Below the pieces are notes generated by a model. The model was not told the origin of the DNA. It worked only from the letters and a program-made list of their open reading frames with translations, and searched no databases. Of a stretch of 64,000 nt of DNA, positions 55,747 through 64,000 are shown one piece after another; the first letter of the stretch is position 1; each line of letters begins with the position of its first letter. The translations under genes and the position numbers were made by a program. The DNA comes from an uncultured Gemmatimonadales bacterium. GTDB taxonomy: Bacteria > Gemmatimonadota > Gemmatimonadetes > Gemmatimonadales > GWC2-71-9. The stretch spans positions 81,798-145,797 of the forward strand of contig CAWJMT010000009.1 of assembly GCA_963844035.1 (NCBI GenBank), in the 5' to 3' direction.

Positions 55747-57183
55747 ATGAGCAGCGGTATCGAAGCCCAAGTCCTGCAGCCATACAAATACGGATTCGTG
55801 ACCGACATCGAGGCGGATGTCGTCCGGCCCGGCTTGAGCGAGGACATCATTCGATTCATTTCGGCAAAGAAGGGTGAGCCGGAGTGGATGCTCGACTGGC
55901 GGCTCCGGGCCTACCGCAACTGGCTGAAGATGCCCGAGCCGCACTGGTCCCACGTGAACTATGGCCCGATCGACTATCAAGCGATCAGCTACTACGCGGC
56001 TCCCAAAACGATGCCGAAGCTCGACAGCTTGGACCAGGTGGATCCCAAGCTGCTCGAGACGTTCGAGAAGCTGGGGATCCCGCTCGGGGAGCAGAAGCGG
56101 CTCACCGGGGTGGCGGTGGACGCCGTGTTCGACAGCGTGTCGGTCGGCACCACGTTCCGGGAGACGCTCGCCAAGCAGGGGATCATCTTCTGCGCGATCT
56201 CCGATGCGATCCGCGAGCACCCGGAGCTGGTCCGGAAGTACATCGGATCGGTGGTGCCTCCCAATGACAACTACTTCGCTGCGCTGAACTCCGCGGTATT
56301 CACCGACGGGTCGTTCGCATACATCCCCAAGGGCGTGCGCTGCCCCCTGGAGCTCTCGACCTATTTCCGGATCAACGCCGGATCCACGGGCCAGTTCGAG
56401 CGCACGCTGATCATCGCCGAGGAGGGGAGCTACGTCAGCTACCTCGAGGGCTGCTCGGCGCCGATCCGGGATGAGCACCAGCTGCACGCGGCGGTGGTGG
56501 AGCTGGTCACGCTCGACGACGCGGAGATCAAGTACTCGACCATCCAGAACTGGTATCCCGGTGACGAGGAAGGTCGAGGCGGCATCTACAATTTCGTGAC
56601 CAAGCGCGGGAAGTGCATCGGCCGGAACTCGAAGATTTCCTGGACGCAGGTCGAGACCGGATCGGCGATCACCTGGAAGTATCCCGGGTGCATCCTGCAG
56701 GGCGACAACTCGATCGGCGAGTTCTACTCGGTGGCGGTGACCAACAATCGCCAGCAGGCCGATACGGGCACAAAAATGATCCACCTGGGCAAGAACACGC
56801 GCTCGACGATCGTGTCGAAGGGGATCTCGGCAGGCCGGGGGCAGAACACGTATCGCGGGCTCGTGAAGATCATGAAAGGCGCCGAGGGCGCGCGCAACTA
56901 CTCGCAGTGCGATTCGATGCTGATCGGTGACCAGTGCGGTGCCCACACGTTCCCGTACATCGACGTGCGAAACAGCACGGCGATCATGGAGCACGAAGCG
57001 TCCACATCGAAGATCGGAGAGGACCAGATCTTCTATTGCAAACAGCGCGGCCTTTCCGCGGAGGACGCCGTGAGCATGATCGTGAACGGGTTCTGCAAGG
57101 AGGTGTTCAAGGAGCTGCCGATGGAGTTCGCGATCGAGGCGCAGCGGCTCCTGGGCATCAGCCTGGAAGGCAGCGTCGGATGA
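55747..57183 (+). CDS. sufB: Fe-S cluster assembly protein SufB
   Basis: [64 protein letters not shown]. Confidence 0.97.
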
Positions 57184-57956
57184 GCCCACGCACGCCCTTG
57201 CTGCAGATTGAGAACCTCCACGTCGCGGTGGAGAGCAAAGAGATCCTGCGCGGCATCGACCTGACGGTCGAAGCGGGCGAAGTGCACGCGATCATGGGGC
57301 CGAATGGCTCGGGCAAGAGCACGCTCGCCCAGGTACTTGCCGGCCATCCGGCGTTTACCGTGACCGAGGGAAGCGTCCGCTACCGCGGCGCCGACCTGCT
57401 CGCCCTCAAGCCCGAAGAGCGGGCCCGCGAAGGCGTGTTCCTCGCGTTCCAGTATCCCGTGTCGATCCGGGGCATCACCAACGCCTACTTCCTGCGCGCG
57501 GCGCTCAATGCGATCCGCAAGCAGCGGGGTGACGAGGAGCTCGGACCGGTCGAATTCATGGACCTGCTCGAGGCGAAGCTCAAGGTCATCGGCTGGGACG
57601 ACAGCTTCCTGGACCGGCCGGTGAACGAAGGCCTGTCGGGGGGTGAGAAAAAGCGCAACGAAATTCTCCAGCTGGCCGTGCTCGAGCCCAAGTTCGCCAT
57701 TCTGGACGAGACGGACTCCGGGCTCGATATCGACGCGCTCAAGACGGTGGCTCACGCGGTGACGCTGTTGCGGCGCCCCGACAACGCCGTCGTGCTCGTC
57801 ACCCACTACAACCGGATTCTGACGCACATCGCGCCGGACTTCGTGCACGTGCTGTCGGGTGGGCGGATCGTCAAATCCGGTGGGAAGGATCTTGCGCTCG
57901 AGCTCGAAGCGAAGGGCTACAACGAGTGGGCGCGGGACGAGGCACCCGTGGCATGA
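57180..57956 (+). CDS. sufC: Fe-S cluster assembly ATPase SufC
   Basis: [42 protein letters not shown]. Confidence 0.97.
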
Positions 57957-59294
57957 CGCAACCGGTGGACGTCACCGGCCGCTACGTCGCGGACTTCAGG
58001 AAATTCGCGGGCAATGGCGCCGCCGGCGCTCCCGGGTGGCTGAGGGAGATTCGCGAGGCGGCGATCGCCCGGTTCGCGGCGCTCGGATTCCCCACCATGA
58101 AACAGGAAGCGTGGCGATTCACGAGCACCGCGCCGATCGCGGAGACGCCGTTCGCGCTCGCTGGACGGGCAGGCGGCGCGCCCTCGGCCGAGCTCCAGGT
58201 GCTCTTTCTTGCCGGCCCGCGCGCGGCCCGCGCTGTGTTCGTGGACGGCCGCTTCGCGCCCGACCTCTCGAGCCTGACCGGTCTGCCTCCCGGGGTTCGC
58301 GCGGGGAGTCTCGCTGCGGCGCTCACCGCGGCTCCCGACCTGACGCGTGCCCACCTGGCGCACTACGCCCCTTACGAGACGAACGCATTCGCCGCGCTCA
58401 ATACCGCGTTTCTCGCCGATGGAGCGGTGATTCACGTGCCCGCGGGCGTGACCGTCGATCGGCCGATCGAGCTCGTCTTCGCCGCGTCGGGCAGCGGCGA
58501 CCCGACGGTGTCGCATCCGCGCAGCCTCGTGGTCGTGGAGCGCGGCGCCCGGGTGACGGTGGTCGAACGTCACGTCGCGCTCACGGACGGCGTCTATTGG
58601 ACGAATGCCGTCACCGAAGTCGCGGTGGGTGAGGGGGCACGAGTCGACTATTACCGTATCCAGAGCGACAGCCGCGTGGCGTACCACGTCGCGACCACGC
58701 ACACGACGCAGGGTCGGGACAGTACGCTGGCCTTGCACCCGATCACGCTCGGCGCCGGGTTGTCGCGGCACGACATTGCCACAACACTCGCCGGGAGCGG
58801 CGCCCAGCTGGTGCTGAACGGGTTCTACCTGCTGCGAGGCAAGCAGCACGCCGATCATCACACCGTGATCGAGCACGCGCAGCCGCATTGCACGAGCCAT
58901 GAGTTCTTCAACGGCATCCTGGGCGAACAGGCGCATGGCGTCTTCACCGGACGCATCATCGTGCGTCCCGGCGCGCAGCGCACCGATTCGAAGCAGACCA
59001 ACAACAACCTGCTGCTCTCGGGCGGAAGCCCGGGCCGACAGCCAGCCACAGCTCGAGATCTATGCGGACGACGTGAAGTGCACGCACGGCTCGACCATGG
59101 GTCCGCTCGATGAGACCGCGCTCTACTACCTGCGGAGCCGCGGCCTGTCGCCCGACATGGCGGCCGGCCTGTTGACCTACGGCTTTGCCGCCGAGATCCT
59201 CGGGCGCATGGAGCATCCGGAGCTGCGCAACGAGCTCGATCTCGTGATCCGCGCGCGCCTCGCGGACCGCTCCTCGGGCGGGCGGCGGGTCTGA
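57953..59294 (+). CDS. sufD: Fe-S cluster assembly protein SufD; apparent frameshift near 59025
   Basis: GFPTMKQEAWRFT, FAALNTAF, VFTGRIIV..AQRTDSKQ..NNLLLS, PQLEIYADDVKCTHGST. Confidence 0.93.
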
Positions 59295-60525
59295 GTGCTC
59301 GACACCGCCCGTATCCGGGCCGACTTCCCCCTGCTGCGCGAGCTGGAAAACGGACACCGGCTCGGTCTATCTCGACAACGCGGCGACCACGCAGAAGCCC
59401 GAGTCGGTGCTGCGGGCGATCGCCGAGTACTATCGCACCACCAACGCCAACGTCCATCGCGGCGCCTACGACCTCGCCGTACGGGCGACGGAGGCGTATG
59501 AGGCCGCGCGGGCAAGCGTTGCACGGTTCGTGAACGCCTGGGCGCCGGAAGGCGTGGTGTTCACGCGCGGCACGACCGAGGCGATCAACCTGGTGGCCAA
59601 CGCGTACGGCCGGGCCAACGTGCGCGCCGGGGACACGGTCGTGGTGACCGCCATGGACCATCATTCGAACCTGGTGCCCTGGCAGATCCTCTGTGAAGAA
59701 AAAGGCGCCACCATCTCGATGGTGGAGATCACGGAGGATGGCCGCCTCGACTTGTCCGATTTCGGGCGGGCGCTCGAGCGCCGGCCGAAGATCGTCGCGT
59801 TCCCGTACGTCTCCAATGCGCTGGGAACCGTGAACCCGGTGGCACAGCTCGTCCGGCTGGCGCACGCCGCCGGGGCGGTCGTGGTGGTCGACGGTGCGCA
59901 GTCCACGCCGCACCTGCGGGTGGACGTCCAGGCGCTCGATTGCGATTTCTACGCGCTGTCCGGCCACAAGATGCTCGGGCCGATGGGGTCGGGCGCGCTC
60001 ATCGCCAAGCCCGCGCTGCTCGAGGCCATGCCGCCGTATCAGGGCGGCGGCGAAATGATTTCGCGCGTGTGGGACGATCATTCGACCTACAACGCGATCC
60101 CGCACAAGTTCGAGGCGGGCACGCCCAACGTGGAAGGCGCGGTCGGGCTCGCGGCGGGCATCGCGTACCTCGAGGCCGTCGGCCTGGAGCGGATCGCCGA
60201 GCACGAGGTCGCGTTGGCGCGCGCCGCCATGGAGCGGCTGAGCCAGGTGGAGGGCATCACCTTGTATGGGCCCCGCGAGCATCGCGCCGGGGTGGTCTCG
60301 TTCACCTACGGGGACATTCATCCCCACGACCTGGCGACGATCGTCGATCAGGACGGCGTGTGCATTCGGGCCGGCCATCACTGCACCCAGCCCTTGATGC
60401 GACGCCTCAACGTCGCGGCGACGGCGCGGGCGTCCTTCTACCTCTACAACGACCACGACGACATCGACGCCCTGGTGGGCTCGCTGGTCAAAGCTGGAGC
60501 GCTGTTTGGATACGTCCCGGCCTGA
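59295..60525 (+). CDS. sufS: Cysteine desulfurase SufS; apparent frameshift near 59365
   Basis: IRADFP, YLDNAATTQKP, NVHRG, HHSNLVPWQ, DGAQS, SGHKM, IRAGHHC. Confidence 0.95.
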
Positions 60526-60950
60526 GCCGAGGCTCAGCGCGCTCTACCAGGAGTTGATCCTCGATCACTACCGGCGGCCCCGCAACAAAGGGGTGCTCGA
60601 GCAGCCGACCCACGCGATCGTCTTGAACAACCCCCTGTGTGGCGACGAGATCGAGTTGCAGCTGCGCATGGACGGGGATGTGATCAAAGAGGTGCGATTC
60701 ATCGGTCGCGGCTGCTCGATCAGCCAGGCTGCCGCTTCGATGATGACGCAGATCGTGAAGGACAAGCGGCTGGCCGACGCGCTCGCGTTGGCGGACCGGA
60801 TGAGCGCCATGATGCGCGGCGATGAGTCGGCCGCCGCCGACAAGGGGCTGGGCGATCTCCGGGCGCTCGCCGGGGTCGCGAAATTCCCGGTCCGCGATCA
60901 AGTGTGCGTTACTTCCCTGGAACGCGCTCAAGGACGCCGTGAAGTCCTGA
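60506..60950 (+). CDS. sufU: SUF system NifU-family protein SufU; apparent frameshift near 60895
   Basis: LYQELILDHY..PRN.G, NPLCGDEI, GCSISQAAAS; corrected end KFPVRIKCALLPWNALKDAVKS*. Confidence 0.92.
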
Positions 60951-61930
60951 CGGACGCCTCCGCGGCCGGCCTGCCCCGCCCCGCGCCCCTCCCGCCTGCC
61001 CTTGTGTTGGACCATATCACCAAACGGTTCGCGGGTCACACGGTGGTGGACGACCTGTCGCTCACAGTCCCGACGGGCGTCATCTACGGATTGCTGGGTC
61101 CCAACGGAGCGGGGAAAACCAGCACCATCCGGATGATGCTGGACATCCTCCTCCCGGACGCAGGTCGCGTGCGGTTGTTCGGGGGATCCGGCACGGCGCG
61201 GGATCACTCGGATCGGATCGGGTACCTCCCCGAGGAGCGGGGGTTGTACCGCCGGATGCGGGTGCTCGATGTCCTGGTGTTCCTCGGCGAGATGAAGGGG
61301 GTCGACCGCCGGGCTGCACGCGCCCGCGCGCTTGCCTGGCTCGAACGCCTGGGACTGGGCGGGTGGCACGCCCGTCGCGTTGACGACCTCTCCAAAGGGA
61401 TGCAGCAGAAAGTCCAGTTCATCTCGACCCTGCTCCACGACCCCGCGCTGGTGATTCTGGACGAGCCGTTCGCCGGCCTCGATCCCGTGAACGCCCAGGT
61501 TCTCAAGGATGTCGTCCTGGATCTCCGCAACAACGGGGTCACGGTATTGCTGTCCACGCACGTCATGGAGCAGGCCGAGAAATTGTGCGACCAACTGTGC
61601 ATCGTCGCGCACGGCCGTAAGCTCGTGGACGGTCCCCTGGCGGAGATCAAGCGCATGCATGGTGGCCAGCATCTGACCATCGGCTTCGACGGGCGCACGG
61701 ATACGGCCGCCCTGCGGATCTTCGCCGACCGGCGGCTCGTGTCCAAAGTCGACGACTACGGGCAATACGCTGAAGTCGAGCTCCCATCCGGCACCGATCC
61801 ACAGGAGCTGCTGCGAGAGCTGGTGCAATCGGGCGTGCGGCTCGCGCGCTTCGAGCTGGTGGAGCCGTCGCTGCACAAAGTTTTCATAGACTTGGTGGGC
61901 GCCGAACGCGGGGAGACGCCGCGTGCGTAA
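60947..61930 (+). CDS. ABC transporter ATP-binding protein (NatA/YhaQ-like; start uncertain)
   Basis: GPNGAGKT, GYLPEERGLY, LSKGMQQK, ILDEPFAGLDP, STH. Confidence 0.9.
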   Translation: MTDASAAGLPRPAPLPPALVLDHITKRFAGHTVVDDLSLTVPTGVIYGLLGPNGAGKTSTIRMMLDILLPDAGRVRLFGGSGTARDHSDRIGYLPEERGLYRRMRVLDVLVFLGEMKGVDRRAARARALAWLERLGLGGWHARRVDDLSKGMQQKVQFISTLLHDPALVILDEPFAGLDPVNAQVLKDVVLDLRNNGVTVLLSTHVMEQAEKLCDQLCIVAHGRKLVDGPLAEIKRMHGGQHLTIGFDGRTDTAALRIFADRRLVSKVDDYGQYAEVELPSGTDPQELLRELVQSGVRLARFELVEPSLHKVFIDLVGAERGETPRA

Positions 61931-63184
61931 GGTTTGGGCGGTGATCCGGCGCGAGTTTCTCGAGCGGGTGCGCCGCAAGTGGTTCTGGGTCTCGGCTCTG
62001 CTCGGTCCGATTTTCTTTGCCGCGGTGTTTCTGTTGCCGGTCGTGTTCGCGTCCGCCGGCGGAACCAAGCGAATCGCCGTCGTGGACGGCACGAACGCGG
62101 ACTTCGGCGCGCGGGTCATCGCCGCTCTGAACGCCGGCACCACGCTCCGCGGTGTCCTCGTAAGCGCAGGCACCAGCGTGCTCGATTCGCTCATGGGAGA
62201 GGTCGGTGCCAAGCGCCTCGACGGTGTGCTGATTCTCTCGGAGGATGTGGTGGCGACCGGGGTGGCGGAGTACCGGGCATCGAGAACGTGTCGGCGCTGC
62301 GCGATATCAAGGAGCTCGAGACCATACTGTCGAGCGTGGTCACGGCGGCCCGGCTCGAGCGTGCGGGTGTCGATCCGGACGTCCTGACGCGGGCACGGCA
62401 AGGGATCACCCTCATCACGACCAAAGTCTCCGGGTCGCATGCGACGGGAGAAAGCGCGGCGCAATCGTTCTCGCTGGCGTACTTCATGGCGGTCATCCTG
62501 TACATGGCGATCGTGATGTACGGCGTGAACGTGAAGAGCGCGGTGCTCGAAGAGAAAACGACGCGGATCGTCGAGGTGCTGGTGTCGTCGATCCGGCCGT
62601 TTCAGCTGCTGCTTGGTAAGGTCCTCGGTGTCGGAGCGGTGTCGCTGTTTCAATTCCTGCTCTGGGGGATTGCCGCGAAGGCCCTGCTCGGCGTGGGGTC
62701 GGCGCTCGGGGGGCATTGGGGCGGTCTCGACACGCCGGAGCCCCTGTTTCGGATCCCGCAGGTGTCGGGCGCAACGGTCTTCATCTTTCTCGCCTACTTC
62801 ATCGGCGGGTTTTTCCTGTACGCCGCGATGTTCGCCGCTGTAGGCGCAATGTCTTCGAACGAGCAGGAGGCCCAGCAGGCACAACAGCCGATTGTGTACC
62901 TCCTGGTGGTCGCGTTCCTCTCCATGTTCGCGCTCCTCAACAATCCCGAGTCTGCCCTCGCCGTGACATTGTCACTCATTCCCTTCACCTCCCCGATCGC
63001 AATGCCGGTGCGCTGGGCGGCGGGCGACCTGCCCGCGCTGGAGCTCGCGGCTTCACTCGTTTTGCTCGCGGTGGGGATCGTCGGCGCCACGTGGGTGGCG
63101 GCGCGGATCTACCGCGTGGGGATTCTGATGACGGGAAAGCGGCCCAGCGTGAGGGAATTGGTTCGTTGGGTCAAGGAGGCGTAA
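61923..63184 (+). CDS. ABC-2 type transporter permease (NatB/YhaP-like); apparent frameshift near 62280
   Basis: RREFLERVR, VLEEKTTRIVEVLVSS, LLGKVLG, FFLYAAMFAAVGA, SLIPFTSP..MPVR, RIYRVGILM.GK. Confidence 0.9.
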
Positions 63185-63198
63185 GGAAATGCACACAC

Positions 63199-63740
63199 CT
63201 AGACGTACAGGCGCATAGACGCACAGCGGTGAACAGTTGTGAGTGAGTAGGAATGGTTCGCAGTGCGGGCCAATGGTTGGGTCCCCAGTGCTCCTCGAGC
63301 GATTGTGCAGAACCATGCCGATCCATCACACACTCAAAGCCTGGCAGCACGCGGAGCGACTAGCGGTAGAGTGTTCCAAGGCCGCCCAGTTATTCCCTGA
63401 CTGCGAGCAGAGCGTACTCGCCGACCAGCTACGACGAGCTGCCTACAGCATCCCCCTCAACATTGCTGAAGGGTGCGCCAGGAAGGGGACCCGGGAGTAT
63501 CGCCGCTACCTCGACATCGCGTGGGGCTCATTGGCGGAAGTTGAATCCGCCTTGGCCATCGCGCGCGATGTCGGGTACTTGCGTCCCGCGGAATTCGGAC
63601 GACTCGAGGCCCTTGCGACCGAGACGGGCAAGACCCTGTTCGGTCTCTTGCGGAAGATCAGCGGGACCGCAGGGAAGCCCATGCAATCCCGTTGACTCCC
63701 GCCTGTTGACCGCTGCGCGTCTATGCGACTATGCGTCTAG
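63199..63740. repeat. 38-bp imperfect inverted repeats flanking the four-helix-bundle gene
   Basis: Left arm CTAGACGTACAGGCGCATAGACGCACAGCGGTGAACAG (63199-63236) vs reverse complement of 63703-63740 CTAGACGCATAGTCGCATAGACGCGCAGCGGTCAACAG: 33/38 identical. Confidence 0.85.
63315..63695 (+). CDS. Four helix bundle protein (23S rRNA IVS protein/Avd-like family)
   Basis: LKAWQ.A, FP..E...L.DQLRRAAYSIPLNIAEG, EY.RYL.IA.GSLAEV. Confidence 0.92.
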   Translation: MPIHHTLKAWQHAERLAVECSKAAQLFPDCEQSVLADQLRRAAYSIPLNIAEGCARKGTREYRRYLDIAWGSLAEVESALAIARDVGYLRPAEFGRLEALATETGKTLFGLLRKISGTAGKPMQSR

Positions 63741-63758
63741 TTGTGTAGCTTCCTCCCC

Positions 63759-64000
63759 ATGCCTGTTGACTATGACGTAATTGTTGTCGGCGCCGGCCAT
63801 GCCGGCTCCGAGGCCGCCGTCATGGCTGCGCGATTGGGTGCCCGCGTCCTGCTCCTGACGTCGAACCTCGATACCATCGGCCAAATGAGTTGCAATCCCG
63901 CGATCGGCGGAATTGCCAAGGGGACCGTGGTGCGCGAGGTCGATGCGCTCGGCGGCGTGATGGGGCGGGCCGGTTGACCGGGCCACGATCCATTTTCGTA
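63759..64000 (+). CDS. mnmG: tRNA uridine 5-carboxymethylaminomethyl modification enzyme MnmG/GidA (partial; indel near 63970)
   Basis: [50 protein letters not shown]. Confidence 0.93.

Follow-up and report, generated by a model that had tools for sequence, protein, structure and literature searches.

A four-helix-bundle gene between mirror-image repeat arrays behaves as a cassette at the permease-mnmG junction of a Gemmatimonadales bacterium and may be transposase-free mobile DNA

Why should a small gene between an ABC permease gene and mnmG be enclosed by long inverted arrays of 8-mer repeats? The question is raised by the far end of a 64,000-nt stretch of an uncultured Gemmatimonadales genome (contig CAWJMT010000009.1 of assembly GCA_963844035.1), hereafter referred to as the window. 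An earlier note, made from the letters alone, had offered two readings, an RNA-excised cassette or the ends of an uncharacterised mobile element. The left arm (63185-63255, plus strand) begins directly behind the stop (63182-63184) that ends the ABC2 permease gene upstream and consists of an outer block GGAAATGCACACAC, an 8-mer array at 63200-63231, an inner block reaching 63236 and weaker pairing to 63255, with its purine-rich strand facing inward. Its reverse complement, the right arm (63684-63746, minus strand), has a core at 63703-63740 that is pyrimidine-rich on the plus strand; a repeat finder delimits the two arms as 63193-63255 and 63684-63746 (63 nt, 78%). On recomputation, the segments 63199-63236 and 63703-63740 around the gene were reverse complements at 33/38 positions, exactly as noted before, and the weaker pairing further out was recovered as an AGGAA outer pairing. 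The description of the arms as about four degenerate 8-mers fits three good left units (TAGACGTA, CAGGCGCA, TAGACGCA) plus one degenerate unit, but not the inner block CGGTGAACAG, which is non-repetitive. Profile matches confirm the placement between an ABC2 permease (PF12698) and mnmG/GidA (PF01134), and no transposase was seen by eye in the ORF list for 56000-64000, in line with the original remark that none lies nearby. Apparent frameshifts at 57926-59294, 60506-61930, 61923-63184 and 63973 split or fuse sufD, sufU with the ABC ATPase gene, the permease gene and mnmG; these are probably sequencing errors, as one base at 63973-63974 is missing from contigs of three runs.

The enclosed ORF (63315-63695, plus strand, 126 aa) matches PF05635 (E 5e-31; 107.5 bits against a cut-off of 33.8) as well as TIGR02436 (E 8e-29; 100.1 bits against 24), so that its assignment to the four-helix-bundle family stands above both curated cut-offs. 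PF05635 was its sole Pfam match, leaving no transposase domain in the cassette and no tyrosine (HUH) transposase. Four helices are present in the AlphaFold (AF2) model of the protein (pLDDT 89.4), and a Foldseek search with it returned Xcc0516 (2GSC; TM 0.78-0.84, E 9e-8) and BT0352 (2RLD) as the closest solved structures, each with five chains in its entry, followed by a weaker match to Avd (8UB7/4DWL; E 0.013, TM 0.73-0.76, identity 14-15%). The proposed kinship with IVS and Avd proteins is thereby upheld. A literature search found no connection of Xcc0516 or BT0352 with repeats. Avd is described, in the accessible part of 10.1101/2023.10.23.563531, as a pentamer binding an RNA stem-loop via all five protomers; by analogy with it and with the five-chain homolog entries, the window's protein would form a pentamer as well. 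A partnership in a diversity-generating retroelement was considered and rejected, there being no RVT_1 (PF00078) match in the window's own genome (G000, a 3.47 Mb assembly, 84% complete). The differences seen in run X2 (see below) have no adenine-specific change pattern. The protein evolves under purifying selection, with a median dN/dS of 0.044 over 174 pairs, and its ORF is free of internal stops in 101/102 subfamily loci. Two further loci, L034 (G037:C55) and G002:C114:25805-26116, have PF05635 in long frames (395 and 657 aa, respectively) and are possible fusions.

With an ORF inside inverted arms of short tandem repeats, the cassette has the layout of a 23S rRNA intervening sequence (IVS), and the earlier note had accordingly favoured an IVS-like cassette in an mRNA, where the arms of a read-through transcript would pair into a stem cut by RNase III and this processing would be the selected function. 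The stem itself is strongly predicted, as the note had expected: for 63150-63800 a fold of -303 kcal/mol (z -7.3) is obtained, and 0/20 shuffles are as good. Further to that, arms match better within a locus than between loci (mean score 46 vs 30), and Coxiella has a 23S IVS with heptameric repeats that is cut by RNase III (PMC4990558, available portion). A selected RNA helix, however, should tolerate G-U over A-C mismatches, and no such excess is found in the arms, with G-U vs A-C counts of 115 vs 122 for the gene strand in 93 loci, 162 vs 160 for the operon strand in 96/106 ortholog junctions, and 50/80 in a cross-phylum set that is biased by its search pattern; as a control, the same genome's tRNA stems gave 17 vs 1. 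Rfam, including the Gut-1 RNA motif, gave 0 matches at E<=5 in 62900-64000, and contigs from RNA runs (X19, X20) consist of flank pieces only, outside the cassette.

The predicted promoters bear on the same reading. A -10 box of a weak variant, GATTGT (63301-63306, plus strand; it fits.A...T only), is predicted 8 nt 5' of the start codon of the window's gene, with no Shine-Dalgarno sequence, and a [TC]A...T hexamer occurs 5-9 nt before the start in 104/109 orthologs (shifted control 0.10), while an SD-like sequence upstream of the gene occurs in 0/109. For mnmG, a -10 box TAGCTT is predicted at 63746-63751 (plus strand), 7 nt before the ATG at 63759; it is overlapped by the outer right arm and is host sequence, unmoved by a flip of the cassette. 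TA...T is found upstream of mnmG in 98/101 regions and an SD-like sequence in 0, and similar mnmG -10 boxes are kept at gene-less junctions. On this pattern the gene and mnmG are likely to be leaderless, each with its own predicted -10 box, so that the stem would exist only in read-through RNA and the mRNA of the gene, devoid of the left arm, would carry only a single-stranded right arm. In addition, the right arm abuts the stop of a convergent gene in 58/76 paralog loci (control 17%), which means that these cassettes do not lie inside a co-oriented operon. We consider it improbable that the cassette is maintained for RNA excision; cleavage of the stem by RNase III may take place as a by-product. 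Further upstream, an AATGGTT motif is present twice, 20 nt apart (63252-63258 and 63272-63278, plus strand), as a predicted promoter-proximal or activator element. Across loci, G[GA]T[TAG] occurs at -38/-39 in 75/109 orthologs and 45/83 paralogs, and at -58/-59 in 55/109 orthologs; upstream of most family members, in different clades, an AAnnGGT-like motif is conserved at -38/-39, frequently with a second copy 20 nt further out, and may be bound by a shared host activator.

At the permease-mnmG junction the unit could be compared across relatives. All 132/132 loci of the window's subfamily touch the permease gene and/or mnmG, and no second site of this subfamily turned up; the window and 2 strain copies of it are counted in this set, along with a few near-duplicates. 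The gene is forward in 123 and inverted in 9, and it is inverted too in a soil DNA contig (run X2) that has 22 differences in 772 nt of the permease gene. To explain the inverted orientation, a flank tree of 102/132 loci requires no fewer than 4 changes; bootstrap trees give 4-5, and 0% of them manage with 1. In the closest inverted locus, L171 (92% aa identity), the outer parts of the arms stay in place and the inner parts and promoter-like motifs flip together with the gene; unit numbers shift, which points to an out-of-register crossover within the arrays. The AATGGTT motifs are inverted along with the ORF in both L171 and L186. Short-read metagenome contigs can be chimeric; mis-assembly is nevertheless unlikely for 7/8 inverted loci, because their arms share no more than 16 exact nt, while in L158, with a 40-nt perfect repeat, the inversion could be one. 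Longer perfect repeats were not associated with the inverted loci (p 0.26). Another inversion, between convergent genes, was found in L276/L325.

Such flipping could be taken for a phase-variable switch, in which the arms would be recombinase sites and a promoter would be turned to face mnmG or to oppose the permease gene, and both the co-inversion of the promoter-like motifs and the intact ORFs in 8/8 inverted loci agree with this. Both orientations occur among strains. Against a switch, the crossover changes the unit numbers, unlike a precise site, only 9/132 loci are inverted with one whole clade fixed in that state, mnmG has a predicted -10 box of its own, and many paralogs are located between convergent genes. 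We see scarcely any likelihood in a switch of this kind.

The cassette is also swapped for divergent alleles within near-identical flanks. The G000 assembly mixes strains: its contig C30 repeats the end of C9, the contig of the window, at 96.6% over 8.8 kb, and C1 does so at 87.6% (C17, in turn, repeats C1:6717-23606 at 81-91%). The near-copies in C9, C30 and C1 are thus co-binned strain copies of one locus, and recent transposition inside G000, which they might have suggested, was rejected. Between C9 and C30 a tract at 63149-63756 has been exchanged and is ~22-25% different inside: C30 differs from the window at 7/772 permease and 5/206 mnmG positions, compared to 82/365 positions of the gene, and C1 has the reverse pattern. 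Among 87/132 loci, nearest neighbours by permease and by mnmG agree in 38-44, whereas those by cassette and either flank agree in 14-19. In the pair L143/L168 the flanks differ by 0.054 and 0.031 and the cassette by 0.333, and several clean swaps involve reference-genome pairs. A rank-correlation test of the independence of the cassette was not significant, with intervals spanning 0. The cassette may raise the rate of allele swap; many tracts terminate at conserved coding motifs in the flanks or within the cassette itself, so that ordinary homologous recombination would be sufficient to produce them. Deeply divergent alleles with sharp borders in near-identical backgrounds could also mark a balanced self/non-self or defence locus, where protein-repeat pairs would counter a phage or a competing element and divergent alleles would be kept and exchanged. 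However, allele divergence is mostly synonymous (dN 0.10 and dS 1.31 for the gene in C9 vs C30) and the repeat class is common to the alleles, and we attach very little probability to such a role.

Loss of the gene is evident from the same junction, which is filled in G000, G001, G006, G016 and G020 (in G017 the gene adjoins the permease gene only); within the genus, 3/7 genomes are filled. In 13 related genomes the junction is gene-less, with gaps of 10-221 nt, and a right-arm remnant persists in G004 and G005. Single arrays of other classes (TTCCCCGC, CTCCCTT and GGGAGAAC) were observed at the gene-less junctions L049 (G022), L055 (G008) and L064 (G021), which indicates that the site acquires arrays repeatedly. 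Spread to new sites was detected in another clade, not in the window's subfamily: genome G207 has three copies of a sister heptamer-class cassette, 91.5-93.2% identical, in unrelated loci, and homology among these copies stops at the arms. No target-site duplication, of the kind looked for in IS elements and MITEs, was apparent by eye at the three copies. We conclude that cassette behaviour, comprising flip, swap, loss and spread, is well supported by these sequence comparisons. With the gene not fixed at the junction and inverted arrays around its paralogs (see below), it was the mobile-element reading of the arms, and not RNA excision as the selected function, that held up among the two originally offered.

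In G000 itself there are seven PF05635 loci, three of them the strain copies of the permease-mnmG locus and the other four each with its own inverted array (TAAGACGC, GGCGGGAA, CAGGTGT and GGCGGTTA). The stronger statement that all seven have clear arms had to be dropped, as the arms of C30 are non-significant (score 17, p 0.75); the same applies to G006 and G001. Arrays of period 7/8 number 192 in G000 and fall into approximately nine main classes; 144 have at least 3 units (reversed control 6). For 61 of these 144, an inverted partner lies on the inward side at no more than 200 nt, compared to 0 on the outward side, and 74 start -12 to +60 nt after a stop codon, against 19% at random and 58 for the opposite strand. 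Modelling the arm class of the window gave 17 matches in G000 (reversed control 0), and gene-less pairs share the non-repetitive outer or inner blocks of the window's arm. The genome has scattered inverted doublets that belong to the repeat class of the gene itself, a feature of RAYT/REPIN systems. Several array classes occur without any four-helix gene in this 84% complete assembly. Two gene-less doublets, C12:38060-38195 and C37:167292-167404, enclose related inner hairpins (GGGGACAG...CTGTCCCC), which suggests a small replicating subfamily.

Repeat arms are a general property of the family. Inverted arms were significant in 79/93 family loci of related genomes (direct-repeat control 4/93; the 93 are those tested out of 99, leaving out 3 duplicate or fused and 3 short ones) and in 48/54 further loci, so that paralogs do not generally lack them, and they were significant in 68/77 cross-phylum loci, which were chosen on the right arm only; the shuffles in our own scripts permuted 2-base blocks. 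The purine fraction of the left arm exceeds 0.5 in 70/79 loci, and the left arm lies -12 to +40 nt from a stop in 47/76 paralog loci. Clear periods among 54 loci were 7 (30 loci), 8 (19) and 9-10 (5). An arm period of 8 or more clusters in one protein clade (6 changes vs 31.8 in shuffled data, 100 proteins), within which columns F109, D67 and G58 of the protein track the period; shared descent is therefore as good an explanation of the period as binding is. Of genomes with an ortholog, 47/55 have the 8-mer doublet, vs 61/246 of those without, in counts that include the cassette's own arms and draw on non-independent kin. One genome, G225, has 115 8-mer doublet matches, far more than the others, and its cassette belongs to the inverted clade. 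The out-of-sample prediction that an array-rich genome should have a matching four-helix gene is weak: among array-rich genomes without the ortholog, the strict arm class was present at a four-helix gene in 2/10 (3 loci were too short), and looser RGACGG-type 8-mers were seen by eye in ~7/10. Homologs from four Xanthomonas species (L378, L387, L404 and L405) have GGGAATC-type arrays on both sides. In Xanthomonas and other Xanthomonadales loci the left arm extends into the gene start, so the layout varies. Judging from flanking peptides, the neighbours of the Xanthomonas Xcc0516-like gene are presumably accB and accC.

How might such a unit move? Most likely, at about an even chance, it is a transposase-free DNA cassette, whose protein binds its own repeats and whose arms fold into hairpins and offer host enzymes a substrate for recombination. 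Each subunit of the putative pentamer would take up roughly one 7-8-nt unit of a single-stranded nucleic acid, with the arms acting as DNA; the four-helix (Xcc0516/Avd) fold is not known to have a catalytic function, so the strand chemistry would be left to host recombination and repair. The outcome would be RAYT/REPIN-like, with insertion favoured just after stop codons and gene-less doublets spreading. What the comparison itself yields is inversion with the crossover inside the arrays, replacement of alleles, gene loss that leaves half an arm behind, sister copies elsewhere, doublets and purifying selection. ORF-bearing 23S rRNA IVSs would then be copies that landed in rRNA, in which RNase III would cleave the stem. 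Neither binding nor excision was observed in our comparative sequence data, nor were circles or transposition intermediates. More tentatively, and at somewhat less than even likelihood, PF05635 as a whole may represent a new class of cross-phylum transposase-free mobile DNA, in which every pentamer reads its own repeats, moves its cassette and, with the help of host enzymes, places gene-less doublets behind stop codons; this would explain the 23S IVSs, the Xanthomonas and cyanobacterial repeats and possibly the origin of Avd.

The main rival to the mobile-DNA reading is a role for the protein in host RNA regulation. A domesticated RNA-binding pentamer, analogous to TRAP- or Hfq-like rings, would bind 3' UTR arrays genome-wide and tune termination or decay, its own arms would provide feedback, and the rearrangements would be passive. 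Long persistence at one site and the strong constraint on the protein (dN/dS 0.04) fit a host function as well, as do the occurrence of the ortholog in 19/78 genera searched and the position of array starts close after stop codons. Recognition of RNA by all five Avd protomers (10.1101/2023.10.23.563531) and the predominantly transcribed state of the Xanthomonas repeats (PMC4692102), both according to the accessible portions of these sources, point the same way, together with the single-stranded right arm that would be the only arm in the predicted leaderless mRNA. At the same time, the gene is patchy even within the genus, there are several paralogs per genome, each with a class of its own, there are recent copies at new sites, and the frequent replacement of cassette alleles would be left without a reason. 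We therefore regard the regulator as possible but unlikely.

The cassette resembles several known systems without coinciding with any of them. It is similar to the ORF-bearing 23S IVSs of Coxiella and Leptospira in protein family, tandem-repeat inverted arms, sporadic occurrence and horizontal exchange at a fixed site (PMC4990558, where, in the part available, the Coxiella ORF is described as decaying). It differs from them in lying between protein-coding genes and not in rRNA, in its 8-mer units and predicted leaderless promoter, in having a protein under purifying selection, in being invertible and in lacking the G-U signature of a selected stem. With RAYT/REPIN it shares a gene with its own repeat class, dispersed inverted gene-less doublets and several classes per genome (PMC3116915, accessible part), but its protein is a four-helix bundle instead of a tyrosine transposase and its arms are tandem non-palindromic 7/8-mers. 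The GGGAATC heptamers of Xanthomonas and Nostoc likewise form convergent inverted pairs of ~4 units with the G-rich strand after stops; in the available portion of PMC4692102 they are described without a known origin, no link to a mobile element is reported, and 'four helix', 'S23' and 'intervening' have 0 occurrences. No link between PF05635 and repeat arrays is made in the accessible parts of PMC4679880 and 10.1101/2024.02.27.582315. A search of the open-access literature, with supplements and most subscription journals outside its scope, returned no description of PF05635 genes with flanking arrays outside rRNA. What appears to be new is the behaviour of the unit at its junction (flip, swap and loss) and the copying of a sister cassette to new sites.

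Units of this kind, a small gene between mirror-image arrays, may be where the 7-8-base repeat hairpins scattered through bacterial genomes come from, and the comparable cyanobacterial STRRs can be counted among these. If this is true, the function of PF05635, the origin of 23S IVSs and the abundant intergenic 7-8-base repeats become one testable system. The flanking repeat class provides a concrete candidate ligand for an orphan family with solved structures, and the loci constitute a natural series of protein-repeat pairs with measurable events, namely inversion, loss, swap and new doublets. Should the protein mobilise DNA without a catalytic transposase, it would define a new kind of mobile element; should it instead regulate RNA, it would be a regulator specific to its repeats and acting at many sites in each genome.
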